Notes under the pieces: model-generated
What the model was told of the DNA's origin: nothing
Database searches by the model: none
The model's input: only the letters and a program-made list of their open reading frames with translations
Origin: Yuukianura sp. NJ FZ-2021
Taxonomy: Eukaryota
Length of the DNA stretch: 64,000 nt
Direction: 5' to 3'
Assembly (NCBI GenBank): GCA_046563655.1
Contig: CM102283.1
Span: forward strand, 372,001 to 436,000
Part shown: one piece after another, positions 23,866-55,592 of the stretch
How positions within the stretch are numbered: position 1 is the first letter of the stretch
Layout of the letters: the number at the start of each line of letters is the position of its first letter
Made by a program: the position numbers and the translations under genes

Positions 23866-24495
23866 GGATTTTCTGGAGTTCAATCGAGAGCGGATTATCA
23901 TTAATCTTGGAGAAAGTTCATCGGAATCTGATACCAGCTCCGATGAAGAATAATTTGTTTGTTGTAACGCCCTCCGACGCTAGAACAACTGAAAAACAAT
24001 CCTCACCAGACTCTCTCTGAGCCCACAGGCTCCCAGAACCAAATAACCTCCAAGAAATCACCACTGCAAAACCATCGGCGAATAATAAATATATGTATAT
24101 ATTTATTGAGTCGATGAATAATATACACTGAAACAACTGCTAAATACTGATCATAACTACTGATCGCTCCAACTCACTCAATAGCCAATCCAAGACTAAA
24201 CTCTATCTACAGAAACGCATCTCTCTCTGCCTCGCTACATCTCAAAACTCCTGCGACTCCACTCGCCGCATCTCTCTACAATCTCAATAAGATATAATCT
24301 TATGGCTACGAAGCCTACGCAGCAGACGCCAACACATTCCTCTCCAGATGATGGGTGACGAGCCTGACGAACACGGCCGACATCCATCAGCGACAACTCC
24401 AAAGGCGACTGCGCCTCTCGAATCTCTGCAACTCCGTGGCCATCATCCTCATCCATGGTCATCAGCGGAGTCTTCATCGTGGTAATCGTCAACCG

Positions 24496-25899
24496 CTAAA
24501 TCCGATTCCTCCCGAGTGCTCCATCCAAAACGACAGGCACTTTCACATTGTCACTCACTAAATCACTTTTCACTTGAATGGAAGTTGTCAAGACAACTCC
24601 CTTTGTATCCACATCATCAATTTCACTTTTTAAATTCATGTTCGGCAAAATTCTTTCTAAAAAACTGAGTCCACTACACTTCCACAAACTTTCAGCACCT
24701 CCTTCCTTCACTTTACGGGACAGTGAGACCCTCGGCTGAACTCGTGGACAATGAGCAGAACTCAAACACAAATAAGCGGAGGCCAATAAATTGACTCCCA
24801 TAAAGTGCCACAGATTCTGAGCTCCACCTTCCTTCACTTTACGGGACAGTGAGACCCACAACTCAGAATTTGTACACAGAAAACCACCGCACTTCAACCA
24901 AACTATAACCAATAATTTCACATAATCACTTTTGCACGAACTTTTAAGTTTTTCACTTTTTAAATTTTGAGGGAATGAGACCCTGAAGACAACAATGCAT
25001 GTAGCATAAGAAACGCTGCGAGCCAGCCATGCCAGGACAACGATCTTCATTTCAATTTTAAACTCATTTTCCATTTCTTCTTTCTTCACCCTTAGTACCG
25101 CAGCACTGTAACTCTCACTTTTGAAAACTTGAGTAACGCCGCACTTCAGCACTGCCGGGCTAACGTTCTCCTTAATTTTCACACTCAACACTAACACTTT
25201 TCGTAAAAGCTCACTTTTTGGAGCTTGAGTAACGCTGCGAGCCTCGCCATTTGTGGCTGGGACAACGTGCTCTGTCTTGGTAACTTTCATACCGAAGACT
25301 TTCTTTAGAAGCTCTCTTTTTGGAGCTTGAGTAACGCTGCGAGCCTTGTCACTTTGGACCGGGACAACGTACTCTTGAGCGACGTCGGAAGATTGAGGCC
25401 TCGTTCCCGAACATCTCTCTTCAATGAGGACTACTTTCAACCCCTCATTCTGCGTCAGTATGCCACCCCCGTGGTCATACTCTTCTTCCATGGTAACACG
25501 ACACACTACACAATTCACTTCACTTCTCACTTCCCGGATCCTTGGCGGGATGAAGCACAGTACCGCCATGCGCATTAGCGAATAACTGTCTTCGGGAGAG
25601 TCCTCGTTCACTGTACAATCTTCATCTTCTAATGGCACTGGATCCCGTGAAAAGGCGTCCCCTTCCGCAGACATCCAGCCATATTGATGCTTCTCTGGAA
25701 CTCTCCATGACTTAATCACCAGATCCTCCAAAATCCTCTTGTTTTCCTTCTTCTGCCACACGAAACCACTATTTACAAAATCGAACTGACTAATATACAA
25801 TTCCATATTTACACCACAACACTGAACTACTTCGTCCGGACACAACTTTACACTAGGGTGAATGATGGACGAAATGTCATTCCCCTTCTTCAGTTTAAA
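24496..25899 (-). CDS. ORF2 in the -1 frame (about 467 codons): repeat-containing protein of unknown function, possibly derived from a dead retropepsin
   Basis: Open for about 1.4 kb; about 34-aa repeats (ARSVTQAPK.ELL.KV) and VSLSRKVKEGGA twice; no D(T/S)G, YxDD or integrase motif. Confidence 0.55.
   Translation of the reverse strand, partial: FKLKKGNDISSIIHPSVKLCPDEVVQCCGVNMELYISQFDFVNSGFVWQKKENKRILEDLVIKSWRVPEKHQYGWMSAEGDAFSRDPVPLEDEDCTVNEDSPEDSYSLMRMAVLCFIPPRIREVRSEVNCVVCRVTMEEEYDHGGGILTQNEGLKVVLIEERCSGTRPQSSDVAQEYVVPVQSDKARSVTQAPKRELLKKVFGMKVTKTEHVVPATNGEARSVTQAPKSELLRKVLVLSVKIKENVSPAVLKCGVTQVFKSESYSAAVLRVKKEEMENEFKIEMKIVVLAWLARSVSYATCIVVFRVSFPQNLKSEKLKSSCKSDYVKLLVIVWLKCGGFLCTNSELWVSLSRKVKEGGAQNLWHFMGVNLLASAYLCLSSAHCPRVQPRVSLSRKVKEGGAESLWKCSGLSFLERILPNMNLKSEIDDVDTKGVVLTTSIQVKSDLVSDNVKVPVVLDGALGRNRI
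25855..25899 (-). promoter_or_regulatory. Predicted -1 programmed ribosomal frameshift signal
   Basis: Minus strand: U_UUA_AAC heptamer (25893-25899) in the Gag frame just before the UGA, 6-nt spacer, then stem AGGGGAAUGA / UCAUUC(A)CCCU. Confidence 0.75.
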
Positions 25900-26639
25900 T
25901 TTTCTGATACATTTACATCTTCTGCACAATCACTTTCCTCTCCATATTCGCCATATCCTTCTGAAACTTTTTCCAAATCAGCTGATCCACTAGCCAAAAT
26001 CACTGGCGTTGGACACTGATACTGCTTATGGCCGTAGCCAGAGCAACGATAGCATAATATGTCTTCGTACTTCTGCGGAGTCACATATTTAATCACTTTT
26101 CCCTTTCCACGGGTACTAACACTTTTACCATAATTGCCACGACCACCACTTCTCCCAAAAATTTTTGTCGAGCGGAAGCCAACGGTGTTGACTCCCATAG
26201 GTCTTCCGTAATTTGCATGATTTTGGTGGCTCTCATGTGCCACCATAATGTCACTTGTCACTTTTCTTGAATTAGAAATTTGTGATCGCACTTGGTCACA
26301 TTTCACACATTTGTTGTTCACTTGGTCACATTTGTCACATTTCTGGTTCACTTCAACCACTGAGTCACTCAACTTTTTTAGATTACACATTGACACTGCT
26401 GCCGCCTTCTTCATAGTGGCAGAGTCTGGAACTACCAACTTGATTGGTGCTGAGACGAGTTGCACGCTTTGCAGGGCCGAAATCAGCGCCTCTGTCGAAT
26501 GTGCACTTTCACTTTCACTAGAAGCCACCGCAGCGACTCCCTCTGTCACTTTCTGAACTACATCCTGCATGCTCTCCACGACTTTGTGCAATACCACATG
26601 CACAATTTTTGCTACATCTTCTTGTGTGTAAGTTGCCAT
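25890..26639 (-). CDS. Short Gag-like protein (about 249 aa from ATG 26639) with one CCHC knuckle
   Basis: RG-rich segment followed by CYRCSGYGHKQYQC (CX2CX4HX4C). First ORF after the PBS. Confidence 0.7.
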   Translation of the reverse strand: MATYTQEDVAKIVHVVLHKVVESMQDVVQKVTEGVAAVASSESESAHSTEALISALQSVQLVSAPIKLVVPDSATMKKAAAVSMCNLKKLSDSVVEVNQKCDKCDQVNNKCVKCDQVRSQISNSRKVTSDIMVAHESHQNHANYGRPMGVNTVGFRSTKIFGRSGGRGNYGKSVSTRGKGKVIKYVTPQKYEDILCYRCSGYGHKQYQCPTPVILASGSADLEKVSEGYGEYGEESDCAEDVNVSENLN

Positions 26640-27720
26640 GGCCCAATCACCCGCAGGAGACGGCACTGTATCACTAAACACGCACACTGAGGCGAACTAC
26701 ACAATGAATGAAATGTTCTGCCGCAGCAAAAACTAGATCCGTCTTCGGTACCAAAATGGTACTAATTAATCACTTCTTTATCTCGGAACTTCACAAATTA
26801 CACTGATTCTTGGTCATTCGTGACCTTTGACATGAGCGGAGGCCACTGCCAGTGACTCCCAGATGAATAAATTGGCGAAAGCCGCTGTTAGCGACTCTCC
26901 AATATGAATCACATGAATGAACACTTTTTTTATGTACAAAACTCACAAATTTTACTCACTTTTATCTTTCCTGACCTTTGGTGACCTCCAGGTCACTGGA
27001 TCTGCTCACAAACGGTCGCCATGTGTAACGCCCTCCGACGCTAGAACAACTGAAAAACAATCCTCACCAGACTCTCTCTGAGCCCACAGGCTCCCAGACC
27101 CAAATAACCTCCAAGAAATCACCACTGCAAAACCATCGGCGAATAATAAATATATGTATATATTTATTGAGTCGATGAATAATATACACTGAAACAACTG
27201 CTAAATACTGATCATAACTACTGATCGCTCCAACTCACTCAATAGCCAATCCAAGACTAAACTCTATCTACAGAAACGCATCTCTCTCTGCCTCGCTACA
27301 TCTCAAAACTCCCGCGACTCCACTCGCCGCATCTCTCTACAATCTCAATAAGATATAATCTTTTGGCTACGAAGCCTACGCAGCAGACGCCAACATTGTG
27401 TTCTAGTTCCAATTTATTAACTCGTGTGTTAGTTCAGAATTTAGAAATTTATAGTGCTTTACCATTCAGAAGGGGTGCAACGTGGTTAGTTTTGCCTTAT
27501 CGTAACCATGAGGAAAAAAACGAATTTTGAAGTAAACAATCTGCACGGAATTTTGACTTGGACTAGGTTAGGTTAGGTTAGATCCATATGAAATGTGACA
27601 AAAGTGGTCAAAACGTTTACAAGATCTGCGGCTGGGCTTGACAAAACGTCTCCAGCTGACCTGCGACCTGCTGATGTACTTGAGAGAACAGCAGTCTACT
27701 TATATGGCGAGTCAGTCAAG

Positions 27721-30901: not shown

Positions 30902-33900
30902 TGTTCTGGCGTTAGCGTCAGAATTATTTTCTCTTTAATTTCAACACTTCTCCTATAGATTTAAGTGTAGTATTAAGAAGTGGAAAGAGCAGGAGCTTAG
31001 TTATGCGCATTACTTGCTCCGCCTATTCCTCCACGTCAGCTCCACGTCTTCAACAATAGTACATAGCATAGAATACATACACAATTCAATCAGTCTTAGA
31101 ATTCTCTACCAATTCAATTCGATCTTTCAATTCAACTTTCAATTAATTGTTTTTCTTTTCATTTAAGTATTTAATTAAAAGTAATTGGTTTATTTGACAT
31201 TACTGGATTGATCTCAACATCGTTCACATCATTTCAAATCCATTCTCACTTGAATTCTGCACATCTTATGGCCGCGATCAACTACATGGTGCCGAAAGAC
31301 GGTTCGTTGGATCTTTGGTAACCGGTATCAGTAACCAACGAGCATTAATCAATTGACCTAACATTAAAGGTTGTAGGTGTGTTTAACTTTCGCCATTTGA
31401 GTGAGTAGTTTCAGTATGTCAGACAACAATACAGAAGGAATGGAGACTCGGTCTAAATCAAAACTTAGATCTCAAACAGAGGAGGATCCGGTGACACCAC
31501 CAGTGTCAACTGAAGTCAATCCACAAACTGCTCCAAGAATCCCCGTACCAGTCGTTACTAAGTCGAAAACTACCGAGTCTGCATCATCCTCCAAATCAAT
31601 CGCTATTCCAACGATAGATCCTGAAATGACCAGACTACGCATGATGCACAAGGGACTCGATATCAACATTCAATTCCTCTTCAACAAGGTCACTGAATAT
31701 GCAGATGACCCGAGTAAGGCCACAAAATCAGTCATCGCTTCCGACAGAAGAAAACTAACCAAACTGGAGTCGTCTCTCTCCGAGTTGAGTTCGTCTCTCT
31801 TCGCCTGCTGTCAGAACGATGCTCAAGTCATGGCTCAAGCTACTGCTGCTAACGTGAGCAACGAAATGATTGACCAAATCAATGATGTCTTGTATTCAAT
31901 TGAGTCACAAGCTGCCGCCTCTGCCACTGCTGGGTCAAGGGTCAAGCTACCAAAACTTGAACTACCCACATTTGATGGAAGGTATGAGAAGTGGCCAGCC
32001 TACCGTGATCTCATAACCACTTACATCGTTGAAAACAATCAACTCTCGGGATGTGAGAAGTTCGGCTACCTCAAACCTACTCTCAAGGGCGAGGCTGAAC
32101 TAATCATTCGCAACTTCAGCAGTACAAACAACAATTTTGAAGAAGCATGGAATTTGGTGAAATCCAGATATGAGAACAACCGGGAAATTGTGTTCTCAAT
32201 TCTCAAACAACTGCTGAGCACAAAACCAATCACCAATGAGAATTCCCAGAATCTCAGGAAACTAATTGACAATTTCAACGAGTGTTGCAGATCCTTATCA
32301 AATCTAAAGGAGCCTGTTAATTCGTGGGATTCGATTTTAGTTTTTCATCTAGTGGAACGTCTCCCTCCAGAATGCAAAAGGGACTGGGCAAAGTCTCTCA
32401 AGGGGACCAATGTACCAAAATTGGCAGAAGTCATGGAATTTTTGGAAGATTACGTTAGAGGTCTGCTTGCGTCTACCACCACAACAACCAAATCAAATTC
32501 AGAGGGTGGAAAACCAGCAGAGAAGAAGGCTAATGTGGCATCCAAGCCTACCGTATCGGAATCAAATCAATCGGTGTCATCATTGCCTACTGAATCTTCC
32601 AGACCAACTCAACCTCTGCGAAAATGCCCAATGTGCCAGTCCACAGATCATGGTCTCTACAAATGTGGGGATTATCTGAAATTGTCAACGGAGGAACGTT
32701 CAAAATTCGTGGGAAGTAAGTCATTGTGCATAAACTGTTTAAAATCAGGTCATTGGGGCAAGGACTGCAAAGGAAAGTTCCGGTGCCTAAAATGTAAAGG
32801 CCGTCATCACACCACGCTTCATTTTGAAAAATCAGATGACAACAAATCTACTGCTCCATCAACTTCATCTCAAGGGTCAACAACCAATTCACTTCAATCA
32901 TCGTCTGCTAGAGTCTTACTCTCTACGGCAGTGGTTGACGTCATGGACTCTGATGGTGAGTTGGTTCAATGTCGTGTTCTGCTTGATCAGGGCTCTGAAT
33001 CAAGTATGATCACAAATGATTGTGTCAAACGACTTGGTTTAATCAAAACTAAGTCCAACGTTTCAATTACTGGAGTGTCAGGTGCAAGTGTCGGTAAGGC
33101 ACTTGGTGAGGTAAATTTCATTGTCAATTCTCGGGTAACTAATTTTCATGTAAATGTCAATGCTCTAGTGCTTAACAAAATCACAGGTACAATTCCCTCA
33201 TTCAAATGTGAGAAAATGGAATGGAGTCACATCTCAAATCTGCGATTAGCTGACCCCCATTTTCTGGAGCCAGGAGACATTGACATTCTGATGGGTGCTG
33301 AGTTTGTCGCTTACCTTAAGACGGGGAAGAGATCAGAAGGACCGCTTACTCAACCAATTGCTGAGGAAACAAAATTCGGGTGGGTTGTATCTGGTCCAAT
33401 TAACTTTCCTTCTAGGTCTGTTTCATCTCATCACATCCAAATTGTGACCGAGGATCCAATTCCAAAGTTTTGGGAAATTGAGGATGTACCAAATCGTCCT
33501 CACCTCACCAAAGACGAAGATGACGCTGAAAAACACTTTGTTCAAACTCACACTAAAGGAGAAGATGGTAGACTCCAAGTAAGTTTTCCATTTAATCCCA
33601 AGATTGAAATTTTAGGTGGGTCTAGAACCATGGCATTACGGAGATTCTATAATCTCGAGAAGCGACTAAAGCAATTTCCGGATCTGAAACCCGAGTACCA
33701 TCGCTTCATGGAGCAATACGAAGAACTGGGTCACATGGAACCAATTCCAGACTCCGAGTGTGGTGAGAAAATTGGTAAAACTAACTACCTTCCTCATCAT
33801 TTTGTACTGAAGGAGACTTCCAGTACTACCAAACTTCGTGTTGTCTTCGATGGCTCAGCAAAGACAACAACCGGAATTACTTTCAACGAGTGTCAATTGG

Positions 33901-36900
33901 TAGGTCCAACGGTGCAAAAAGACATTTTTGCGCACTTAATCAATTTTAGGTCAGACCCGATCGCTCTTAAGGCGGACATTACAAAGATGTACCGTCAATT
34001 TGGAATTTCAAAATCTCATCAGGACTATCAAAGGATTTTCTGGAGAACGTCAGAGTCAGATCCAGTCAAAGAGTACCGTCTCAAAACGGTCACTTACGGC
34101 ACTAGTTCAGCGCCATTCCTTGCGGTAAGGTGTTTGAATGAAATTGCTAATTCCAATTCTCAGGCATTTCCAAAGGGGGCGGAGGTCCTTAGGGAAAGAT
34201 TCTACGTTGATGATCTCCTTGGAAATGCAAAGTCTACGGCCGAGGGAGTTCAAATCTACAATGAGCTCTCCAAGTTATTGGAATCATCCAATATTGAAAT
34301 CCGGCAGTGGGACTCAAACGACTCTGAACTACTCAACTTCATTCCAGAAACTCTACGTGGTAAAAATCCTAGTGTAAAATCAGATTCTAATCATGTCCGA
34401 GCTTTAGGTGTTTGTTGGAATTCAACCGATGACGTCTTTCATTTCTCTGGATACACACCAGTAGCCGAAGAAAAAGCTACTAAACGCTCTGTACTTTCGT
34501 CCATGAGCCGTGTCTTCGACCCACTCGGTATGTTATCTCCGTTCACTGTGTCAATTAAACTCTACTTCCAGAAACTTTGGACACCAGTTGAAACCGATGG
34601 AAAGAGTCACATCCTAACGTGGGACCAAGAGATACCTCGAGCCTTACTTCAACCATGGATCGACTTTGAACAAGGGGTAAAACTAATTGAGAATGTTAGA
34701 ATCCCCAGGTTCCTGTTTTTAGGCACTGCTGAGTTCGTGGAGCTCCACGGATTCTCGGATGGATCCGAATCTGCTTACTGTGCAGTTGTCTACGCCCGCT
34801 CGATTCGTGGAAACGAAATCTACACTAACATCATCGCTGCCAAGACGAAGGTAGCTCCAATCAAACAAATCTCAATTCCTCGTCTGGAACTCTGTGGAGC
34901 CCTTCTCCTGACACGACTGATGACTCAAGTCACTGAAGCTCTGAAACTCCAATGTCCCATCACTTGCTGGAGCGACAGTGAAATTGTACTACATTGGCTA
35001 CGAAACCGGTCTCGTAAGTTCAAAACATTCGTCGCCAATCGAATTTCAGAAATCCAGGACGTACTCCCTGCCGAGTCATGGAGATTTATTCCTGGTAAAA
35101 TCAACCCTGCTGATCTTGGGACACGAGGAATCCCAGCAGAGGAACTAATCAACTCAAATCTCTGGTTCAAAGGACCGTCATTTCTATGTGAGTCTGTAAA
35201 ATTACCTAATTTTGAGTCGGGGGAAGTAAGTGAGCCTGACTTGGAATTAAAAGGTGAAAAAGTAATGGTCAATTTGGGTTTAATCAATTCATCCATGTTT
35301 GAAAGGTTTTCTAATGTCATTCGGCTTAAACGAGCCATGGCGTATGTCTTACGATTTATTAGCAACTGTAGGAATTCAAAAACTGGAAATCGTTCAACTG
35401 GACCACTTTCAGCTACTGAAATCCACCATGGATTCATAATCTCCATCCGGGAGGCTCAACGAGAGTGTTACGGCAAAGAGATCAAGAAACTGAAAGTCGG
35501 AAAAGAATTGTCTAATCGTAGTCAATTATCCTATCTCAGCCCATTTTTGGACAAGGACGGTATCCTAAGAGTCGGTGGAAGACTCAAAAACTCACAAGAA
35601 CCAGAGGAGAAGAAACATCAGATGATTCTGTTTGGAAATCATCCATTGACCAAACTCATCATTTGGAATTACCACATCAAACTGCATCACGCCAGTTATC
35701 AACTACTGTGGAGTAGCCTAAGACAGCAATTTTGGATCATTCGAGCCCGTGTCACTGTTCGTCAGCAGCTCCATCAGTGCATAATGTGCAAAAGGCTCCG
35801 TGCCAAAACTTACAATCAGCTGATGGGAAATCTACCAAAACCACGAGTAACCCCATCACCACCATTTAGTCACACTGGCCTTGACTTTGGAGGACCAATG
35901 AAAGCATCAGAAACCAAGGGTAGAGGTAAAAAACAATTTGATGTGTACTTTTGTGTTTTCATTTGTTTTAGTACCAAAGCGGTTCACATTGAACCGGTAA
36001 CAGGCCTCGACACTGAGACTTTCATTGGCACTTTGAAGCGGTTCGTAGCACGACGAGGATTACCGACTGCAATCTACTCTGACTGTGGAAGTAACTTCGT
36101 CGGAGCCAAAAACGAAATGTCTGAATGGGTTAGTCTATTGGAAAAGTCTAATGATGAAATTAGCGATTTTTTAGGCAACCAAGGGATAGAGTGGAAGCTG
36201 AACCCACCAAACGCTCCACACATGGGTGGACTCTGGGAAGCTTGTGTCAAATCTACCAAGTTTCATCTTAAACGTACCGTGGGAACTCAATGTCTGACAC
36301 TGGAAGAGTTCTACACCATCCTAGCCATGATCGAATCAGTTCTCAACTCCAGACCACTCTATGCCATGTCAGATGATCCGGATGATTTTCAAGTACTCAC
36401 TCCTGGTCATTTCCTAATCGGTCGTCCTCTCACTGCCATACCGGAACCAAGTCTACTCCACCTCAAGGAGAATCGTTTGTCTCGGTGGCAGCATGTCCAG
36501 TTCATCTTGGAACACTTTTGGAAGAAATGGAGTATTGAGTACGTTCATACTCTTCAAGAACGGAGGAAGTGGGATTCACCTACTGAAAATGTCAAAATCG
36601 GAGAATTAGTGCTGCTGAAAGATGACAATCATCCACCACTCAAATGGAAGATGGCCAGAGTCACTGCAGTCTTCCCAGGAAACGATGATCTTGTCCGCAC
36701 TGTTGAAGTGAAGTACACTACATTCGATGAGAAGACCAAGAAGCCAAAACTACATACATTCAAACGACCAATTGTCAAAATCTGTCCACTTCTATCTCCA
36801 GATCCGTAACTGCAATAATTTTATTCATTTTAGTGTATTCTTAATTTTAACTTTTCAATTTACCACTTAAAGTAGCGTAATTGTAGAGTTTTAGATTAAT

Positions 36901-40528: not shown

Positions 40529-42095
40529 TGGAGGGATATTAGTAGCAAAACTACTTTTTACTTTCCCCGCCAATTAAAGTTTCCTAATTAAAAAAGTTAA
40601 CTTTCCCCCATTTATTTAATTGGCGAAAAGTTAATTTTAATTGGGGAAAGTTAAATTGGCGAAAAGTTTATTGGGGAAACTTTAAACGGCGAAAAGTTTA
40701 TTGGGGAAACTTTAAACGGCGAAAAGTTTATTGGGGAAACTTTAATCGTACTTACTACTTTAATCGTAAAAAGTCTAAGCGTACGGTAAAAAGCGTACGC
40801 TTAGAAAACGTACGCTTAAAACCAATTGGGGAGAAAAAGTCTAAGCGTACGGAAAAAAGCGTACGCTTAGAACCAATTGGGGAGAAAAAGTCTAAGCGTA
40901 CAGTAAAAAGCGTACGCTTAGAAAAATACTGATATAACTAGATATAACCTTACTCGAAACGATCAAAATTTGCATTTTATAAATTACAGAATATATTGAT
41001 TATATTGAATACAAAATAGTAATTATATTTATTATAAAATATGAATCTTACAAAAACTTTATTTCTCATATGCTTCGTGATGCCATTATTTAGACTAGAG
41101 CTAGTGAAGACGGTTCCAGGTTATAGCCGCCAAACCAAAAGCCGCCAATCCTAAAGCCGCCAATCAATAGCGGTCAATTTCTAAAGCCGGCAATTCCTTA
41201 ACGGCCAATCCTAAAGCCCCCAACGTCAATAGCCCCCAATGATTAAAGCCGACAAAATTACAAACTGCAGATTATACGTTAAGGTCAAGGTAATCACAGA
41301 AAGTAGTAATTCACGCGCGACCTAACCAAACCTAACCTAGGTTAATCAAGCATAACACAACCTAAATAACCTAAGCTGATTAAATAAAAAAACCAGTTTT
41401 TAGGTTTATCGGCTTTAATCATTGGCGACTATTGACGTTGGCGGCTTTAGGATTGGCGGCTAAGTAATTGGCGGCTTTAGAAATTGGCCGCTATTGATTG
41501 GCGGCTATAGGATTGGCGGCTTTTGGTTTGGCGGCTATGACCTGCTACGAGTGAAGACATCATTTAAATTATGGCGCCATACATTTTTCAAAACCGTAGC
41601 AAAGCATATGAGAAATAAGATTTTTGTAAGATTCACATTTTATAATAAAAATAAATAATATTCTGTAATCAATATAATCAATATATTCTGTAATTTATAG
41701 AATGCAAATTTGGATCGTTTCGAGTAAGGTTATATCTAGTTATATCAGTAGTTTTCTAAGCGTACGTATTCGTAAGCGTACGCTTTTTACTGTACGCTTA
41801 GACTTTTCTCCCCAATTGGTTCTAAGCGTACGTTTTCTAAGCGTACGCTGTTTACCGTACGCTTGGGCTTTTTCGCCGATTAAAATTTCCACAATAAACT
41901 TTCCGCCGTTTAAAGTTTCCCCAATAAACTTTTCGCCAATTTAAGTTTCCCCAATTAACTTTTCGCCAGTTTAAGTTACGCCAATTAAAATTAATTTTTC
42001 GGCAATTAAATAATTGGTGAAAGGTAACTTTTGGAATTGGCGAAACTTTAATTGGCGGGGAAATGTTAATTAGTTTTGCTACAAATATCCCTCCA
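40529..42095. mobile_element. Foldback/MITE element with about 550-bp internally repetitive inverted arms and TA flanks
   Basis: TA|tggagggatatt...aatatccctcca|TA; subrepeats ggcgaaaagtttattggggaaactttaa and aagcgtacgctta are mirrored in both arms. Confidence 0.85.
41111..41549. mobile_element. Mutator-family MITE related to the element at 6121, nested in the centre of the foldback element
   Basis: Same termini cggttccagg...cctgctacg and gccgccaat subrepeats; TSD agtgaaga(c), 8-9 bp. Confidence 0.9.
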
Positions 42096-44969: not shown

Positions 44970-46148
44970 TGTTGGAGTTCTAAGCGAACTCCTTTTTGAA
45001 ATTCGGTGGAAAAAAGAATCGGGCGAAAACAACAAGATGAGATTTTTTGGGGCTTTCGCCCTTTTATTATAAAAGAAAAAAACTGAGAAAATGTTGGGGA
45101 CAATTTGGTGTTTCGATTGGTGTGAGAATCAGACTCTGATGACTACTTGTTTGCAAGAGAGCAGAAAACTGACTGAGGTTGGTGGGGCAGGAGAGTCTTG
45201 ACATGGGCTGCTGAGTGACCTTGGTCACTCGTGAGTCCATGAACACAAAATGCCTCACCTTGTGACATGGACCATGTCACAAGGCATGGCACTAAGACAG
45301 GCTTTGGAGCCTGTAAGACTCAGGAGGAAGGAAATGGAATTTTAATTTAATTAACTGGAGGGGTTGACCAAGGTCGAGCGGTTGTTGGCTTGACCTTGTC
45401 AATTCCTCCAACACTCCCGGCCCTTGGTGGATTGAAGATCCACCAAGAATTTTTTGAAAACTAATGTGGAAATGGAAAATGAATTTTGAAATGGAATAAA
45501 GATTGAAATTGGAAATGGAAATGGAGTGTTGGAGAAAAGGCCAACCAGTGGAAAGGAAAATTGTAATTTTGTGAATTTGTAAATAATTAATTAGGTAAAT
45601 TTAAAGTAAATTTAGAGTTACGTTACTCGAATGGGAAAATGAAAAGAAAACTTAAAGTTATGGTGACGTGTTGGAGGTTGAGCTTAGGCGTCTTCGGTTG
45701 CTTCGGAGTCGGAGTGACCTTGACCTTGGCTGTTGGATTGGAATTGGTGGAGAGTGTCGTGGTGAGGTTGATTGCAGTGTCTGCAGAAGACCTTGTAGAA
45801 GCATTCTGCAGTGGTGTGTCCGTGGCGGAGGCACAAATTGCACAATTTGCATTTGTGCACAAATGACCATTTCTCATTAAGAGAAAGATTTTGAAATTGT
45901 GGACAGTGGAAGAGGCGGTGTTCTCCAGAACACTTTGGACATTTGGTTGGTGGTTTGCCTTTGGTGGCATGGTGAGTCGTTGAACTCTTCGGTGCTCCCG
46001 AATTGGCGGTGACCTTGGGTGGCTCTGAAAGAGCACTGGCACGGTGTTCCAGGAAGTCCAGGAATGCGGAGAGAGTTGGGAGGTCGTCATCGTTCTCGGA
46101 GAGAAGTGATGAGGGCTGTAAGCCACTACTGCCTGCCGCAAATCTCAA
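44970..46148 (-). mobile_element. Truncated BEL-type element: Gag-like zinc-knuckle ORF fragment (45684-46148) and 3' LTR (44970-45413)
   Basis: LPTLSAFLDFLEHRA followed by CPKC...H, CNLCL..GH...C and CRHC...HHDTLH; LTR-like tgttggag...ctccaaca preceded on the minus strand by gggccgggag. Confidence 0.75.
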
Positions 46149-46176
46149 GTTGCCCCAGGTATTTATGACTGGATGG

Positions 46177-46306
46177 CAAAAAATGCAGAATGCTTTTTTG
46201 CCATCGTGTCAAAAAACGCAGAATGCTTTTTTGCCATCGTGTCAAAAAATGCAGAATGCTTTTTTGTCGTCGTGTCAAAAAATGCAGAATGCTTTTTTGC
46301 CATCGA
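46177..46306. repeat. 39-bp tandem repeat, about 3.3 copies
   Basis: caaaaaatgcagaatgcttttttgccatcgtgt units. Confidence 0.85.
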
Positions 46307-46334
46307 AAAAATTAAGTCCATATTCCATTTAAAC

Positions 46335-46575
46335 TTAAAAAAAGTTAGGTTCCTACTCTATTTAAACTCCTCGCATAATCAAGCATTCTTCTCTCACGGA
46401 TGGCTCAACTTGTTGCTCTCTGCTCTTTAAGTCATTGTCTCATTCCACCTTCTGCAGAATGGTGGAAATGGAACAGTGACTCAAGGAGCAGAGAGCAACA
46501 AGTTGAGGCATCCGTGAGAGAAGAATGCTTGACTATACGAAGAGTTTAAATAGAGTAGGAACCTAACTTTTTTAA
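46335..46575. mobile_element. Palindromic MITE (about 240 bp) with TTAA at both ends
   Basis: Near-perfect palindrome centred on ctgcag (46452-46457): aagttaggttcctactctatttaaactc / gagtttaaatagagtaggaacctaactt. Confidence 0.8.
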
Positions 46576-46894
46576 TTTTTTTTTTATTACGGCTACTGGG
46601 AATCGACGCCAGGCTCCCTCGATTTGATGCCACCACATTATCGATTGCGCTAATCCACTCACCATTGTTTAATTCAAAGTAAATTCAATATATACTCTGA
46701 AATAATCAAAATGTTCATGTAAAACAGGGTTTGAAACAAAAACGTTTTTAACATTAGAAACTGTATATATCATAAAAGCTCGGCTTGAATTCCTTCCCGG
46801 TTATCGTATTGCAGACTAATAGTCATATTGATCATAGTTCGAAATTCAGCCTTCAGTGATCTTTCTTAAGCCAAACTGAAAACATCTATCTACA

Positions 46895-47383
46895 ATGCGG
46901 CAGAGGTACGTGTTTAATCACGAACACTACTACAATACTTTGAGGGACCAAATTGGCCACGGAATTCCTGTGTTTCATGGGGTACGACAGAGAGGAGGAG
47001 GCATTGGTTCCATCCTAGGAGGAATAGCAAAATACGCTTTGCCTATAATCATAAAGTGGATTATGCCCCATGCAAAGGAAGCAGCAGTAAAAACTGTGAG
47101 TGGGATTGCGAAAGGACGTCAGTCAGTAAAGCACGCTCTGAAGGAAAACAGCCTCGGATTTTTGAAAAACGTTGGTGCCGATCTTTTGAAATCAGCAGTT
47201 GGATCTCAAACAGGGAAAGGCGTGGGAGTTAAACGGAAGCGTACATATACGAAACGGAAGCCATCCAGGGGAAGAAACAAAGCGTCAAAAAAATCCAAGA
47301 AACCGAAGGCATCGAAAAAGAGAAAGGCTTCAACGAAGGCAACAAAGACTGCAAAGAGAACCAAATTGGATATATTTGCATAA
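46895..47383 (+). CDS. Polinton conserved basic protein (core/pVII-like)
   Basis: QRGGGIGSILGG motif, QTGKG, Lys/Arg-rich tail ending DIF; immediately upstream of the MCP. Confidence 0.75.
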   Translation: MRQRYVFNHEHYYNTLRDQIGHGIPVFHGVRQRGGGIGSILGGIAKYALPIIIKWIMPHAKEAAVKTVSGIAKGRQSVKHALKENSLGFLKNVGADLLKSAVGSQTGKGVGVKRKRTYTKRKPSRGRNKASKKSKKPKASKKRKASTKATKTAKRTKLDIFA

Positions 47384-48679
47384 TGTCGCTACTACAATCT
47401 CGATCTAAACCAGCCCTTCGTGGAGAAGTTGATCTGTTCTCAATCCCATCAACAGACACAGCTTGTGACTATAGTATGTACGAAAAGTATCAGCCAGTAG
47501 TAAACGTTCAGGACGCTTCAAACAAAATCGAATTCAAGATTCCAGGAAATAGTAACCATTATCTGGATTTGACTGACAGCTTCCTACGGATCAAGCTAAA
47601 AGTGACGCAGAAAGCCGGTGCGAACCTAGGTAATGATTCGACAGTTGGTACCGTGAACTTATTTATGCACACGCTCTTCTCACAACTGGACATTTACTTC
47701 AATGAAAAACTAGTGTCCACAAGTAACAATGGCTACTCATATCGTGCTTAAATAGAAACATTACTTTGTTATGGAAAAGACTACAAAAGTTCTCAAGGTG
47801 GGTGTGCTTTGTACTACGAAGATACAGTTGGAGGAATTGCGGACTCGACAAACACTGGATGGGAAAAGCGAAGAAGCTACATCAGCGAATCCAAAGCGGT
47901 GGAACTGATCGACAAATGGAGATTTAACCTAGCAAATCAACATCGCTACATATTGAATGACGTGAATGTTCGTATTTGTCTGACGAGATCTTCCGATGCA
48001 TTTGCCCTTTTCTCCAAAGCGAAGGGGGAGGAAGGCGTAATCAAATTCTTATCTGCAACGTACTACATCAGAAAACAACTGCCATTTCCAAGCATTATCT
48101 TGGCTCATCAGAGACTTTTAGAAAAAGGTGAAATTGCACAGTACCCTTTCAAATCCACCGAAGTAAAATACTTTACCATTGCTCAAGGAAATTCATCTGC
48201 CCTCGAAGAAAACCTTTTTTCAAATAACTGTCCCAATCGGATTATAATAGGATTTGTAGATAGCCTGGCTTTCAACGGAGATTTCAATTCCAATCCGTTT
48301 CGCCCATTACAACATTAAGTCCATTTCGATTTCAGTCAACAATGTGTCTATCCCTATACGACCGTTATCCTTAGACTTTCACAACAACGAATGTCTTTTG
48401 GCATACTATCTTTTATTTACGAGCACTGGAATTGCTGGGCACGACGTTGGACTCTCCTTCGCACGTGACGATTACAAAGAAAGCAACGCGCTGTTTACAT
48501 TTGACATTCTTCAGCCCACAGGGAACGACGCATTGCTTCATTTGGAGAAATCTGGAAGTGTGAAAATTGAAGTCCAGTTTGCCTCAGCATTAGACAAATC
48601 AATACATTGTGTCATACTTTCGGAACAACAAGGTGTCTTGGAGATTGACAAATACCGACAAGCAGTCATCGCACAATGA
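47383..48679 (+). pseudogene. Polinton major capsid protein (double jelly-roll, PY/hexon-like)
   Basis: EVDLFSIP, IEFKIPG...YLDL, NLFMHTLFSQ, YRA*IETLL (stop 47749-47751), PNRIIIGFV...AFNG...NPF, frameshift at about 48300, LEIDKYR. Confidence 0.9.
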
Positions 48680-49236
48680 ATACCACCGAAATCTTGGAAA
48701 TTCTGAATAATAATCTCAAGGAATCATATCAAACTGCAGTTCTACCATCTGACAAGTTAGGGGTTATTAAATCTGATCAGTTTGCTATTGTTGTAAATTC
48801 GCAAAGTTCAAAGGAACCAGGAATGCATTGGATCAGTATGTTTAAAAAGCGTGGAGGCAAGGAGGTAGAGTTTTTCGACAGCTGCGCAATGCCGATAGAG
48901 TTTTACAGCCCCAGCTTTGTCAGTTTCCTTTACTCAAAATCTGACGTCATTCGATTGAGTAATCTCAGAGTACAACCGGGGCATAGTGATGCGTGCGGAC
49001 AGTTTGCACTATATTACTTGTTACACAGAGTCAGGGGAGAATCGTTTGAAAAGATTCTGAGCAAGTTTGACGAATTTCATCTAGATATAAACGACACTAT
49101 TGTTAGAGATTTCGTATCAATGAATTTGCAACACGATAGTGAGACAAGTTTGAGAGTGGTTAGTCAAAACTTAGAAGCAGGCAAAATTATTCAGTGTTGC
49201 GAAATTTTAGGAGTTCTACTCAGCATGTCAATCTAA
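48676..49236 (+). CDS. Adenain-like cysteine protease
   Basis: IVVN...PGMHW, EFFDS, Q...ACGQFALYYL: His/Asp/Cys triad and oxyanion Gln. Confidence 0.9.
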   Translation: MNTTEILEILNNNLKESYQTAVLPSDKLGVIKSDQFAIVVNSQSSKEPGMHWISMFKKRGGKEVEFFDSCAMPIEFYSPSFVSFLYSKSDVIRLSNLRVQPGHSDACGQFALYYLLHRVRGESFEKILSKFDEFHLDINDTIVRDFVSMNLQHDSETSLRVVSQNLEAGKIIQCCEILGVLLSMSI

Positions 49237-49307
49237 GTTTGTTGTAGACGTAATTCATTTAACCCAATTATATTCTTTGTAAGGCTTTCTTATTGTATTA
49301 AAGAAAA

Positions 49308-50237
49308 ATGAAATCGGACATCCAAGTGTCATACAAGCGAATTGGAAGCTCTGGTTATTTGGGCGGCAAGAAGCATTTGAGTAAGTTAAACGGCATTTCG
49401 GAATCTTCCGCATTGAAGTTCTTACAAAGTCAAGATTCTTACACACGTCATAAAGGCCGAAGGTGCAAATTTCGTAGAAGGCGAGTAATATCTCCTGGCT
49501 TAAACTATCTTTGGCAGGCTGATATTGTTTTCTTGCCAAAGTACACTGATGAAAACGATGGCTACTCTTGTCTTCTAACAGCAATTGATGTCCTGTCAAA
49601 GTATGCATTTGCTGTGCCCATGAAATCAAAGAAAACTAGCGAAGTTATCCAAGCATTTAAAAGTATCATCTCTTCGGGGAAGGGGCGGCCCGTAACGCTA
49701 GAATGTGATCAAGGTTTAGAATTTTGGTCAGCTGCATTCCAGTAGTGGGCAAAGTCTCTTGGTATATTGATGTACAATAACTTTTCAGACTTTGGCTCAT
49801 CCGTTATTGAAAGGTTTAACAGAACAATATGCACGGCTATTTCAAGACATCTTACTGAAAGTGGTCAAGCGAGATACATTGAAGCCCTGCCTTCTCTATT
49901 GAAGACGTATAACAGCAAAATACATTCGCGAACGAAAGTGGCGCCATGCAACGTTAACAAATACAATGAAATGGACGTCTGGTTGGAATCTTATAAGGAC
50001 TTGTATTCAAAACCTATATCAAAAGCAAGTCTTAAACTATACGATCGCGTTCGCCTTGATAAAACGAAACACATATTCGGCAAGGGTTATTGGCCTGCTT
50101 TTACGAGCGAAATTTTTGAAGTCTCTGAAGTCATCAATTCCATTCCCGTGACGTACCGTGTTAGGGATCTTTCCGGTGAGCAAATTTCTGGGATCTATTA
50201 CAGTCAAGACCTCAGCAAGATAAGTTCAAAAGAGTGA
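49308..50237 (+). pseudogene. Polinton retroviral-type integrase with one premature stop (49743-49745)
   Basis: WQADI, LLTAIDVLSKYA, CDQGLEF, IERFNRT, FGKGY..FTSEIF, PVTY..DLSGE.I.G.YY. Confidence 0.9.
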
Positions 50238-50238
50238 A

Positions 50239-50983
50239 ATGGGATTCTATATTACATTACCGTCGAACGGCTCACGTTATTTTTCTGACAATCGAACAAG
50301 TAACTACAGGATTAAACTTCCGTCAAAAATCAAACTTGAGCCTTCCTTATATGAGGTCGGGCTAACTGAGTTGACTTATGTGTGCTCCATAAAAACTCTA
50401 ACCGGAGCTGAGAAAGACAATCTCATTGAGTATAATGGGGCGAAGACTGCCGGGAAAGTAGAGCTTCCTTTACTTCATTACAGTACCGTGGAGCATTTAG
50501 TTCACACGGTCAACGCATCTTTTGTAAAGCACAGCGTCCCTTCCAACTTGAAGTACTACGAAACAAGGTGCTGTGATCCTGGAAGTAGAAGCCGGATTTA
50601 GTATCGAAATAAGTGAGAAACTTTCCTACATTTTGGGATTTAACGGTACGCTTGAATTTAATTCAAATCAGCAAAATACCTACTTCATAGCCGATTTTCC
50701 ACCGGATATACTCGGAGGGCGATATCACATGTTTCTATACTGTGACATAATAGAGTCTCAAGTCGTTGGATCTTCCCTTGTCCCTCTGCTTCGTATGGTA
50801 AACATAATTGGAAACGAAGGACAAGCAGTCACTCAAACTTTCGCTCATCCGTTTTATCTTCCGATTTCAAGAACCGAGTTTGACATCATCTCTATTGTAC
50901 TGTGCGACGAGTTTGGGGAGGAGTTACCAATTGACAAAGGTCAAGTGACTTTAACTCTACATTTTAAGAAGATATCAACCTAA
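50239..50983 (+). pseudogene. Polinton minor capsid protein (penton-like, PX), frameshifted at about 50570
   Basis: FYITLPSN..F..N, YEVGLTEL, FLYCDIIESQVVGSSLVPLLR, I.L.DEFGE, VTLTLHFK. Confidence 0.88.
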
Positions 50984-51717
50984 TGGAAAACAATACGTAC
51001 GATTTCGATCAAATTCAACTCAAACATCCATTCACATTTATTGTTGCGGGTGGCACCATGTCTGGAAAAACAACATTTGTTTGCAAGATAATTCAAAACC
51101 TCGACATGATGGTGTCACCTAGAATCGATGACGTAATTATTTTCTATAAGGTATATCAAAGCGGCTATGACGTCATGAAGTCAATGGACGCTAGAGTTAG
51201 ATGTATAGAGGAACTAAAGTTGGACGAAGTCTACGCCAAAAATACATTGCTAGTGATCGATGACCAAATGGCAGATTCATTAAAAGACAAGTCTGTCCAA
51301 GAACTTTTCACTTGCGGCGTGCATCATAGGTACGGCAAAAATCAGTTTGGAAATGTAAATCTGGAACGATGAATTTGCATAGAATTGACAAAACGTTTTT
51401 TTTTAAATTTCAGGTCAATATCCGTCATCTTCCTTTCGCAAAATTTGCTGCCGCAAGGAAAATATGCAAGAGATATTTGTCTCAATACACATTACATGAC
51501 GATTTGCAAGACCCCCTCATTTCCTTCACAAGTGATGTACCTCAGTAGACAACTCAATCCAAGGAAGCCAAGTGCAATTTTAACCGCTTACGAGGAGGCA
51601 ACACGACAGCCGTATTCATACTTGTTTCTAAATTTGCACCCTAGTTGCCACGATAATTTACGAATACAGTCCGGAATTCTTCCAAAAGAAGAGCATATTA
51701 TTTACTTACCAAGTTAA
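50983..51717 (+). CDS. Packaging ATPase (FtsK/A32-like), two exons 50983-51329 and 51414-51717
   Basis: HPFTFIVAGGTMSGKTT (Walker A), LLVIDDQM (Walker B), GVHHR|SISVIFLSQN restored by an 84-nt GT-AG intron, PYSYLFL. Confidence 0.9.
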
Positions 51718-51731
51718 GTGTTTCCTTTACA

Positions 51732-52079
51732 ATGACAAACCGCTTAGTTTGAAACAATACGTTCCTCGAAAAGGTTAAAAAGTGTAAAGCTGTGCGCCGA
51801 AAAAAGTTAATAAAAAAGGCGTCAAAAGACAACATTGAAGCATTGTCCGAAATTGCTCTAAACACGTTAATAGGTAATGTGCCATTAACTAAACAACACA
51901 AACATAAACTCAAACGGCACAGGAGTTGTATTCGAAATCTTGCCAAAAAGTTCTCCATTAAAAAAAAGAAGGAGTTCTTAATACAGAAAGGTGGATTTAT
52001 TCCATTGTTGGTGACACCAGCATTGTCTATACTTGGCGGCCTTGCTGCGAACGCATTAAGTCATCTTGTAGGTTTATAA
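51732..52079 (+). pseudogene. Polinton small basic protein with hydrophobic C-terminus (early stop at codon 7)
   Basis: EIALNTLIGNVPLT...KL, QKGGFIPLL followed by an amphipathic tail. Confidence 0.7.
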
Positions 52080-52917
52080 TGTCCAAAAAAATGAAATTGA
52101 TACCACATCTGGAGTACGAAAAACTTGTTGCAATTCAACGAGCTCCTCAGCTTTTACATAAATCTACATCAGTTCAACTATTCGACAGGAATACTATTGA
52201 ACAAGATTCTTGTTCAATAGTATGGTGAAGGGACTCCACACAAACTTTTCGGCTCTAATGAACACTCCACTTCAGGTTGAAATTTCTAAACCAGCAACAC
52301 TCCCTCCGACACCCAAAAGTTCAAGATCGGACCCTGCAAAAACTGTTAACCGAGATGCGGAAACCGCCGTAGACTAGGCTTTATTCAACACTCACCCAGC
52401 TAAGTTCCTACCAAAAAAGTATCAGATGCCCGGCTTGAAAATAATGCAGGTTCTTTCTACATCTGCATTTAATGACATATCCTGGGATGAGTCAGGACAA
52501 GTGTTCTTTAAGGGTGTAGCCAGAAGTGGGGCCAATATTATTGAATTACTGACATATGTTTTGAAGCCTCCGGCAAAGGTCACTCCACCAAAAGGAATTC
52601 GAACATTTATTTATATTTTGAAGAAAGTTCATATACCAAAGGAATTGCTTGGAATTCATATACGAAGCAAACTAAATTTGACTACGATAGCACTTCTTGC
52701 ACAAAATACTCCAATGGTTGGACAACCTTTGGAAGAAGCCGACGAAGAGGAAGAGGATGAGGAGGTGGAAGAAGAGGAGGAGGCTGAACAGGAGGAGGAT
52801 GGGGTGGAAGATGATGATAACGAGGAAGAGGATCCTCCACGAGACGACGGGGATGCATCAGGTGATGATTATCAAGCGCCAGTGGCCAAGTCATCTGCTG
52901 CTTGGAGCTTCTACTAA
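52079..52917 (+). pseudogene. Polinton conserved protein of unknown function with acidic tail, disrupted
   Basis: MSKKMKLIP start; ISWDESGQVFFKG...GANIIELL...PKG...F...L...IPKELLG motif; Glu/Asp tract; stops and frameshift in the 5' half. Confidence 0.65.
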
Positions 52918-52948
52918 TCAGTCTTTTGTTTTAGCTTCGAGGCAAACA

Positions 52949-53641
52949 ATGTCGGAAAGTGAACCAGTCGTTAGAGTAGAAGTGGTTAACATGCCTCTTG
53001 TGGTGTCGACAAACGAAGGACCTGATTTCGAAGAGTTCGTAACCCTTGAAAGCAGACTATCCAGCTTCAATTCATCTGTAATACATTGCTTTCCTCCGGT
53101 CGAGAATCTAGCCACGGCTGGCTTCTTCTACACAGAGTTTAGGACGCCGTAATATGTTTTTATTGTGGACTATGTTTAAGTTGTTGGAGTGAGCACGACT
53201 CACCATGGTTAGAACATCGTATTCATTCTCCAAACTGTGCGTATCTAATCCTACAGCACCCAATCACAAATGTAATCAATAAACTATTACTGAAGTAAAT
53301 ATTTATTCACAACTACATAATTTTTTGGAAATTTATTTTTTAGACTTCGTCAACAACAGATCTCTGTGACATGACCCCGGGTGATAGCATCGAAACAGGT
53401 TCAAAATACAAATAAAATTGATGTGAGTTAAATGAATCCACTGTTCTAAAGTACGTTTTTATGCATAGAATTGAACAAGCTGAAGTCCATTATGCAGTGC
53501 AAGATTTGCATGACACGTCAGGCCTCCTATATGTACGCTCCGTGCTGTCACATGGCAACATGCCTGGAATGCTGTACCACCCAATCAAAATGTCCTATAT
53601 GTCGTTATGCAATAAGTCTGATCATTAAAGTTTTCATTTAA
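52949..53641 (+). pseudogene. iap: Inhibitor of apoptosis (one BIR plus RING), three exons 52949-53271, 53344-53398 and 53469-53641, one frameshift at about 53140
   Basis: RLSSF...LATAGFFY / DAVICFYC...W...DSPWLEHRIHSPNC (BIR, CX2CX16HX6C); CKIC...PCCHMATCLEC...CPICR...KVFI* (IAP-type RING). Both introns are GT-AG and frame-preserving. Confidence 0.85.
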
Positions 53642-53721
53642 AATTAGGACAATAGCTATGAAAGTAACAAGAAATGACAGCATATGCTTTGTATCAAATC
53701 AACAACAAATAGATAATAGAT

Positions 53722-54560
53722 TTATTGTTTATCTAATAAGTAATGACCGTATGGTAGAGTGGAAATTCCGTCGTCAAAAATATAACGTTTAGAATCAAAC
53801 GCATGCAGTGCGGCTTTAGTTGTTTCGATATTATAAATCTTGTGTTTGTAGGAGCGCATTGAGTTTGTTGTACATGATAAAATTTGCTGTTTTAATAAAA
53901 CCTGCTCCAACATTGCAAACGATATTGACCTTTGCTGTATTCTCTGTGGTATTCCTTTCATGGCACATTTCTTAAAAGACGCTGCATCGTAGTCTTCACC
54001 TACGAAACAGTAGGACTTCGGAGCAACTCCAACAAACTTTGTAAGTATCCGGCCTTTAACCTCGTCTTTCATTTTCCCCGTGACTCCAGCGTTTACTGTT
54101 GAATAATGCGGATGGGATGTGGGCAAGTTGCTTGTATCAAACAGCTCCAAGTCTGCTTCAATGTCTTTGTATATGTCGGAGGTACGAATCACATATGCAA
54201 GGCTGTCAGTGTCGGTCATCAGTAGTTTTGCATTTGAACCCCATTTTGACTTAACATAGTCATAATGGAAACGGGCCATATGTAGTTTGCTTAATTCCAG
54301 AACGGAGAACCCGGTGTAAATAGCTTTGTTAAGAGTTACGCAGGACTTCTGCATTCTGAAGCATGCTAAGTTTTTGCTCAAGATGTCGTGAGACAAAAAT
54401 TGAGATTTTCATATGAGTCTGGCAGCGGTTTTACGGTCGTTCACGACTCTGACGTTCATTCGTTTCCTCACAGATTCCATGCCCTTCCCAAACACTGCAT
54501 TTACGCATAGCTTGTAGAACATCTTCTGAAACTCATTTGATGCATTTCGTCTATGTTATT
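53722..54560 (-). pseudogene. Protein-primed family B DNA polymerase, C-terminal fragment
   Basis: FYKLCVNAVFGKGMESVRKR (motif B), stop at about 54410, IYTGFSVLELSK, TDTDS (motif C), GKMKDE, KSY, DSKRY...TLPYGHY. Confidence 0.92.
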
Positions 54561-55592
54561 TCGATATATTTCGTTATCAAAAAATATTGACTGCCAATTG
54601 CATTTGTAGAACAATTTTAAACATTGTTTTCTAATTTTTAAAAACGTTTTTAATAGGAACCTGTCAGCTGCACTCCCTCTCGAGGATTTTGATAAGCAAG
54701 AAAAATTCGAAGAAAAAGGTTGCTGAATCATGAAGCACAAATACTTCCTTCCTATTTTTATATTTGACATTATTTCGTATTTTATTTTAGTCTTTTAAGA
54801 ATTGAAAATTGATTTGAGTTGTTTTTTTAAATTAGTTTTTATAATTTTTATTAGAATGTTAAGAAATTTTATATATTTTAAATTGAATTTTACAATAAAT
54901 AGTAATAAGCGTAATGTACAGGGATCAGACATATTTAGTTCCCATGCCCGTAATGTTAACAAAAAAAATATTTGCGGGGTTTTCGTTGCTAAATTTTTAT
55001 TTATTTTCCCACGGCGGGCGACTTTTTAAAAATATAGTTTTTCGTCAATACTTCGAGGGGTTTTAGCACATATTTTTGACAACGCTGGTAATGTAATAAA
55101 TGTTTAAGGCATAACTCAAAAAACTGAAAGTATATTTTTGGAGTGATTTAGAATGTAGATTGGGCGTGGTTGTTTTTGTTTGTTGCAGTTGCCAAGATTG
55201 GTTCAGTTTGGAAGCAAAGGTAGCCAGCGGCTGAATTGCAGAATGCAGACCCCCTTGACCTTTGTGCCATGGGGCAGGGCCTATCACGGCCACGCTCCAA
55301 CTAAGGAAGTACTTTCCAGCATGACTTGTGCTGACAGGATTCACACTGCGTCCAATTGATTGTGATTTGCATGCGCAGAATGGAATTGGATCTGAGATTG
55401 GATTCATTCACTATCAATCGATGTGTCAGGTGGAAGCCATTCACCTTCTGCTTTACTTGGACATACTTTATGTCTCCTTCCAAAACTGCATCTACAGCAT
55501 AAAAAACCCTGCATTTCACAGGAACATACTGGACTCGGAACAAACTTCGGCAGAACAATGCACCTCAACCAACAACAGGATCATAGTTAACA

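Follow-up and report, generated by a model that had tools for sequence, protein, structure and literature searches.

The window, i.e., the whole 64,000-nt stretch analysed here (contig CM102283.1 of Yuukianura sp. NJ FZ-2021), contains a Polinton/Maverick element running from 46107 to 54555, where it breaks off. Its genes are ordered as basic ORF, major capsid, protease-like gene, rve integrase, minor-capsid-like gene, ATPase, two small ORFs, iap and, on the opposite strand, PolB (Table 1). The left end of the element is inserted into a zinc-knuckle ORF (45684-46208, minus strand), which we take to be Pao/BEL-like. Of the two ends, the left one alone is present in the window copy, which is a decayed fossil with stops or frame changes in most of its genes and PolB cut down to its end. 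Both terminal inverted repeats (5'-TGATGA) together with 6-bp target-site duplications were found in two of the ten sister stretches, where the elements measure 15.2 and 15.5 kb. The element ends at window position 46107 and in L066 and L070 begin with TGATGA rather than with the AG-type ends known from Polintons. TTAGG repeats were seen at two of the ten contig ends that were read, and suggest that the host is an arthropod. Elsewhere in the window, three Pao/BEL LTR retrotransposons (9323-13672, 18079-23412 and 31416-36809) have LTR pairs that are 97-100% identical, and two of them hold a single ORF of about 1780-1800 aa. At 23963-27323, 300-nt direct repeats (99%) flank two ORFs on the minus strand (436 and 249 aa), neither of which had a Pfam match. 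Inverted arms made of 15-16-nt tandem repeats form palindromic elements at 6121-8116 and 40562-42063.

Table 1 Features of the Polinton/Maverick element in the window (positions are those of the window)
Feature	Positions	Strand	Evidence and remarks
Left end, terminal inverted repeat	46107..46211	+	begins TGATGA, as do the TIRs in two complete copies
Long palindrome, two 114-nt arms	46331..46580	.	arms 89% complementary; common to most family copies
Basic 162-aa ORF, probably core-protein-like	46895..47383	+	single ORF in sister copies; no Pfam match
Probable major capsid protein gene	47383..48679	+	in the window, stop near 47750 and frame change near 48300
186-aa ORF, probable cysteine protease	48676..49236	+	no Pfam match
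rve integrase	49308..50237	+	PF00665 above cut-off; window stop near 49743; single 309-aa ORF in several sisters
Probable minor capsid gene	50239..50983	+	frame change near 50550-50600; single ORF of 248-252 aa in several sisters; no Pfam match, label tentative
Packaging ATPase exon 1	50983..51329	+	Walker A, Walker B and G-x-H-H; Pox_A32 (PF04665) above curated cut-off
84-nt phase-2 GT..AG spliceosomal-type intron	51330..51413	+	TGA at 51370; alignment gap, copies, metagenome loci, tree
Packaging ATPase exon 2	51414..51717	+	S-I-S-V...Q-N motif to C-terminus; first Met at residue 28
Two conserved small core ORFs	51732..52917	+	115 aa and about 290 aa in sisters; both broken in the window
iap-like gene, three exons	52949..53641	+	BIR and RING (PF00653, PF13920); window frame change near 53140
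iap intron 1, 72 nt	53272..53343	+	GT..AG in 8/8 aligned copies
iap intron 2, 70 nt	53399..53468	+	GT..AG in 7/8 aligned copies
3' remnant of protein-primed PolB	53722..54555	-	part of the last exon; element breaks off here

The probable major capsid gene forms a single ORF of 432-442 aa, without an insert, in several sister copies. It gave a feature match of 0.98 to Atlas clusters in which 15-30% of the members carry PF21738 (DJR-like), with a recognition value just under the bar and a blank Pfam scan. The protease-like and minor-capsid-like ORFs were also blank in Pfam; both have the expected size and position and are conserved in relatives, and from its position and motifs the former is a probable cysteine protease. 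The palindrome lies just inside the left TIR and could possibly serve as an origin or packaging signal. At the other end of the element, L067 (6000-8100) and the right arm of the copy in L070 contain an apparent multi-exon gene located between PolB and the right-hand TIR; its middle part is strongly acidic and its end resembles PC4 (PF02229, E 0.0017, below the cut-off).

The ATPase gene is interrupted by an insert that begins with GTACGG and ends with TTTTTTTTTAAATTTCAG (TTTCAG), with AG before it and G after it. Its GC content is 0.30, compared with 0.39 in the flanking coding DNA, and it lies in phase 2 relative to the ORF starting at 50983. The initial annotation had read it as an 84-nt insert with an in-frame TGA that splits a conserved GxHHR-xISV motif, and every detail of that description proved right. 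Its further proposal that removal of the insert restores an uninterrupted ATPase is borne out by the frame, as 115 whole codons 5' of the insert and 100 codons 3' of it (stop TAA, 51715-51717) are read in one frame. The ATPase assignment itself is also seen with an uninterrupted relative (P0002), which matches PF04665 above the cut-off. Against PDB sequences, the ATPase profile gave no more than weak P-loop matches (E at least 0.008).

The boundaries of the insert were located with the read-through protein, in which the TGA was written as X and which served both as query and in the alignment. The query found 32 homologues among 157 candidates, with the springtail Orchesella dallaii as the sole named source. 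When 17 homologues (43-65% identity) were aligned with it, all 17 were continuous through the site and left one large gap of 28 columns right after G-x-H-H. Seven GT and five AG dinucleotides lie near the site, and the gap fits the pair 51330/51413 only; the chance that a random insert of the same composition has GT..AG ends is ~0.003. The donor is GTAC in the window and GTAA in seven of the nine other copies in the same genome. A YTRAY word resembling a branch point is present at about -25 to -29 in 6/10 copies, which is a weak signal. None of six inserts folded beyond its shuffles (z -0.5 to +1.75; +0.98 for the window insert). An Rfam scan of 46000-55000 placed no intron family on the insert, and its hits were limited to below-threshold hairpins near 46160-46560. 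The window insert matched six places in the genome, all of them ATPase copies of its own family, in a search that skipped common words.

A DNA search of the genome recovered ten full copies of the ATPase gene at 76-100% identity and one fragment. All ten carry the insert at the identical nucleotide; it is therefore not unique to the window copy, and such uniqueness was part of what the initial annotation had named as refuting an intron. The lengths are 84, 82, 77 (four copies), 61 and 70 nt (three copies), covering all three classes modulo 3, and the window insert alone is divisible by three. The GT donor is kept in 9/10 copies (L008 has CT) and the CAG (YAG) acceptor, preceded by a tract rich in A/T or pyrimidines, in 10/10, and in every copy the insert contains a stop in the read-through frame. 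Compared with the window copy, indels occur within the insert in all nine other copies; outside it we found a 2-nt deletion common to two copies and an interrupted 5' part in one of those. For L009, identity to the window is 36/69 within the insert versus 261/347 and 255/304 in the exons. Comparison of the window with ever more distant copies (Nei-Gojobori) gave dN/dS of 0.006/0.054, 0.018/0.236, 0.038/0.936 and 0.076/2.5, i.e., ratios of 0.03-0.11 that are low in both halves of the ATPase. This combination of low dN/dS with synonymous saturation and a freely changing insert shows that both halves have been kept as protein, under purifying selection. The near-identical pair L009/L010 (dN 0.012 vs dS 0.022) reflects decay after insertion. 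Exon 2 opens with 27 conserved residues, which include invariant S, Q-N, Q-G and L-N columns, and no in-frame ATG occurs between the last stop of the insert and exon 2 in any of 13 rows. Because the first Met is residue 28 and the insert offers no ATG, the conserved start of exon 2 is reachable only by removal of the insert.

The same phase-2 site was found occupied outside this genome. Among the best 80 of 377 related metagenome stretches, six loci from three metagenomes carry an insert there, and the other 74 gave one continuous match through the site. The inserts are 63 nt (L081), 57 nt (L083), 70 nt (L088), 67 nt (L094) and 62 nt (L099) long, with L102 carrying the start of the same insert as L083, so that the range in the genome and the metagenomes combined is 57-84 nt. 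GTAA starts the insert in 6/6 loci and YAG ends it in the 5/5 whose end is on the contig, and the interiors of the five distinct inserts are visibly different in sequence. The comparison across family copies and relatives that the initial annotation had called for thus returned one intron position throughout the genome copies and these loci. An IMG/VR scan yielded four loci at 21-22% identity, which were uninformative.

Protein databases appear to hold the same interrupted genes in pieces. A search among shorter proteins gave 15 matches from 18 candidates, ten of which are 115-117 aa long and end exactly at G-V-H-H-[R/K]. Such truncated proteins (P0035-P0045, P0048; sources JGI/ENA/Logan) are pieces called by prokaryote-style callers; four of the ten equal loci that we saw in DNA, and six are further lineages. 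The warning that the gene would be miscalled is therefore realized in these entries, which record half of the protein. A spliced protein of the intron clade was not found among the 32 homologues, the best full-length one being ~65% identical and outside the clade.

To place the inserts in the phylogeny we used a maximum-likelihood tree of 33 ATPase rows, seven of them intron-bearing. Thirteen rows were left out (L095, L119 and all 11 rows of the distant own-genome families), and the tree was therefore rooted at its midpoint. The seven intron rows make up one side of a 100/99 branch, and the ten truncated proteins group with them (87/96). Sister to the intron clade are the uninterrupted P0002/P0003, followed by L082/P0004; L082 is the closest relative shown to be uninterrupted in DNA, and P0002/P0003 may stem from DNA or RNA contigs. 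Since the intron-bearing ATPases form one clade inside uninterrupted relatives, the simplest history is that the intron was gained a single time, by the clade's ancestor. Distant Polinton families of the same genome (~30% identity) are continuous at the site in the 16 cases read directly, and L024-L061 have no intron-sized split there. Three near-identical members of a distant ATPase family (L043, L044, L045) share a frame change near probe residues 127-134, with a gap too small for an intron. The genome contains 77 matches to the second half of the ATPase, and its many Polinton families are clustered on C1, C3, C4, C5, C8, C9 and C10.

Introns of this kind are not restricted to the ATPase. 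PolB contains five inserts at the same sites across eight aligned copies, 55-105 nt long with a GC content of 0.26, and GT..AG ends were found in 39/39 scorable insert-copies (one cell was left out as the alignment breaks there in one copy). Uninterrupted PolB proteins of relatives map onto the sister copies in pieces, and the PolB exons align over the full length of 1100-1260-aa PolB ORFs in relatives. One exon found 430 homologues, several with PF03175; a Pfam scan of three exons gave no match. When the joined PolB of the intron clade was searched for among longer proteins, the best matches were at 53-56% and none came clearly from the clade. In several copies, each of the capsid, protease-like and integrase genes and of the small core genes consists of one ORF without inserts. 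Introns from HSP70-family genes of the host resemble the element inserts, with 73-99 nt and GC 0.24-0.33, in a tiny sample of five clean calls out of seven (the two set aside, of 204 and 80 nt, were GC-rich and scored low). The suggestion that ATPase and iap introns together make the element dependent on splicing holds for the family, where the iap introns are present and PolB adds its five inserts; it does not hold for the decayed copy in the window. In three relatives (L084:7263-7653, L085:6527-6923, L087:2931-3321) iap has one apparent intron, as judged by eye, and the ATPase is uninterrupted, as is PolB in L085. Because the iap intron occurs in relatives with an uninterrupted ATPase, spliced accessory genes may predate the introns of the core genes.

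A second, only distantly related Polinton family of the same genome also has introns in PolB. Seven of 15 other own-genome elements inspected carry them at up to three sites, R-G/G, N-L-Y/G and D-T/D (the slash marks the intron), with C3_7466k having the D-T/D intron only; PolB is continuous in four of the 15, and the remaining four are partial, broken or without a match. The sites of the second family (C3:7747001-7767000, L175/L176; L185-L194; L201/L202) lie within catalytic motifs, and presence or absence varies among its members. At R-G/G, codon and phase are identical to those of PolB intron 3 in the window's family. A PolB tree was made from one shared exon and includes six of the 15 other elements and three of the seven with introns. 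In it, uninterrupted PolBs from metagenomes are the neighbours of the window's family (98/94), and the second family is placed elsewhere, together with uninterrupted elements of its own genome. On this topology, parallel gain at an AG/G site would be more economical than one gain followed by several losses.

We considered how else the insert might be explained. That a dead copy picked up a neutral insertion or a nonsense lesion, with GT..AG ends by chance, would suit the window copy: its PolB is truncated, and stops or frame changes affect both capsid genes, the integrase gene and iap. However, the insert is present at the identical nucleotide in all ten copies and in five distinct outside lineages, and dN/dS remains at 0.03-0.11 on either side of it while dS saturates. 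Moreover, copies with TIRs and target-site duplications contain the insert and so must have moved with it. Because the insert is conserved and the two halves are under selection, we exclude such a lesion almost entirely. Another reading is that the gene has been split into two separate polypeptides, of 116 aa and of 73 aa from an internal Met, that assemble. Prokaryote-style callers annotate exactly these pieces, and in most members a TAA directly follows the H-H-R/K codons; this TAA is, however, the GTAA donor read in phase 2, and a split gene gives no reason for the conservation of GT and AG. In the second piece, the 27 residues that precede its first Met are conserved without an in-frame start in 13/13 rows, and the reading fails because these residues would stay untranslated, which makes a split gene extremely improbable.

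Removal at the level of translation was also weighed. In phage T4 gene 60, the ribosome leaves at a take-off codon with a stop next to it and resumes at a matching landing codon. Take-off and landing codons are likewise both AGG in 9/10 own copies, with TAA next in 8/10, and bypass of the insert by ribosome hopping from AGG to AGG could account for this pattern. The codons nevertheless differ in all five metagenome inserts (take-off and landing being AAG and AGG, CGG and AGG, CGG and AGA, AAG and AGA, AAG and AGG) while GT..AG is kept, no folding beyond shuffles was seen in the six inserts, and the PolB and iap inserts would need the same removal in other phases; we give hopping next to no chance. 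A recent introner-type or self-splicing mobile intron seems very unlikely, even though dinoflagellate Polinton-like elements are known to harbour introners (bioRxiv 10.1101/2025.03.18.643946). The absence of an Rfam intron family and, in the search that skipped common words, of any match in the genome beyond the family's own ATPase copies argues against it, as do the lack of a hairpin, the short length (57-84 nt) and the different sequences at one site. By class, a group I or II intron requires a catalytic structure of several hundred nucleotides, compared with 84 nt, no Rfam match and z +0.98 here, and for an introner the look-alike copies at unrelated sites and the terminal repeats are absent, with six matches that are all ATPase and no fold. 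An old, eroded introner origin is conceivable, and the insert would still be a spliceosomal intron in that case.

The insert is thus very probably a GT-AG intron of the major-spliceosome type that lies in the A32-like ATPase gene for packaging in a Polinton/Maverick family and would be removed by the spliceosome of the host. On the same explanation, the ancestor of the element clade acquired it in a single event, and the clade has kept it since. The element would be transcribed in the host nucleus, where the spliceosome would remove the ATPase intron, the five PolB introns and the two iap introns, and the spliced ATPase message would yield a normal protein of about 216 aa. An unspliced message would run into a stop at or soon after the donor and give the P-loop half alone. 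Introns in essential replication and packaging genes would in this way commit the element to expression in the nucleus and by splicing. Most simply, they would be tolerated, near-neutral passengers.

A bolder and rather unlikely interpretation is that the ATPase intron is a regulated switch, alongside repeated intron gain by the Polinton lineages of this host. With the GTAA donor read in phase 2, the P-loop half is followed at once by a stop in 8/10 own copies and 6/6 metagenome loci. Retention of the intron would then produce a 116-aa dead or dominant-negative motor, with the capsid and integrase genes independent of splicing, and control of splicing by the host could choose between copying as a transposon and packaging as a virion. 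The retained intron of the P element offers a comparison for a switch of this type. With regard to repeated gain, two PolB lineages separated by uninterrupted relatives share the exact site R-G/G-G. If this interpretation were true, these Polintons would offer a natural system in which intron gains in animals can be counted.

Vertebrate and Caenorhabditis Mavericks resemble the elements described here in having pPolB, an rve integrase, an A32/FtsK-like ATPase, TIRs and a 6-bp target-site duplication, and probably also a protease-like gene and two capsid genes. According to the accessible text of the reports, intact vertebrate elements have no introns, said to agree with Kapitonov & Jurka 2006 (PMC8097293, Barreat & Katzourakis 2021), and in Caenorhabditis the core genes are intronless with introns in cargo genes only (Widen et al., bioRxiv 10.1101/2022.07.12.499685). 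Intronless core genes are thus a trait described for Polintons, though not a defining one. Unlike those Mavericks, the present family holds six inherited introns in two core genes, one in the ATPase and five in PolB. In a search of openly accessible literature, no paper was found that describes spliceosomal introns inherited in the core genes of animal Polintons; older descriptions and Repbase entries may mention introns.

Introns have been described in related elements of other hosts, again as far as the accessible text of these sources goes. Full-length proviruses of dinoflagellate Maverick/Polinton-like elements likewise contain spliceosomal-type introns, which are introners, i.e., repeated, transposon-derived and mostly acquired after integration (bioRxiv 10.1101/2025.03.18.643946). 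Unlike them, the introns here are non-repeated and mutually unlike, at a position fixed in the clade, between exons under purifying selection and in an animal host. In mirusviruses, too, essential viral genes contain GT-AG introns of about 80 nt, which have been interpreted as pointing to expression in the nucleus and as a ratchet that keeps the virus trapped there (PMC12768974). They belong to another realm and to protist hosts, and their introns are enriched in virion genes and often accompanied by homing endonucleases (PMC12768974), whereas in the present family the capsid genes are spared and the introns are tiny and carry no gene. Cryptophyte Polinton-like viruses are alike in having introns within Polinton-like elements, but these are self-splicing group I introns of 309-376 nt in a small gene and not spliceosomal (PMC12220804).

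These observations bear on how Polintons are surveyed. 'Intact' Mavericks are often defined by intronless ORFs, according to the accessible text of one such survey (PMC8097293). Since animal Polintons are mined as intronless, an intron-bearing lineage would be scored as degraded and drop out of surveys, and the ten truncated database proteins show this loss happening. That the intron is real, and that it marks a splicing-dependent Polinton clade, appears well supported by the sequence comparisons. The introns would then be evidence at the sequence level that a replication gene and a virion-packaging gene depend on the nuclear spliceosome for their expression, a point relevant to the question of where Polintons replicate, and their nesting among uninterrupted relatives would give datable intron gains.
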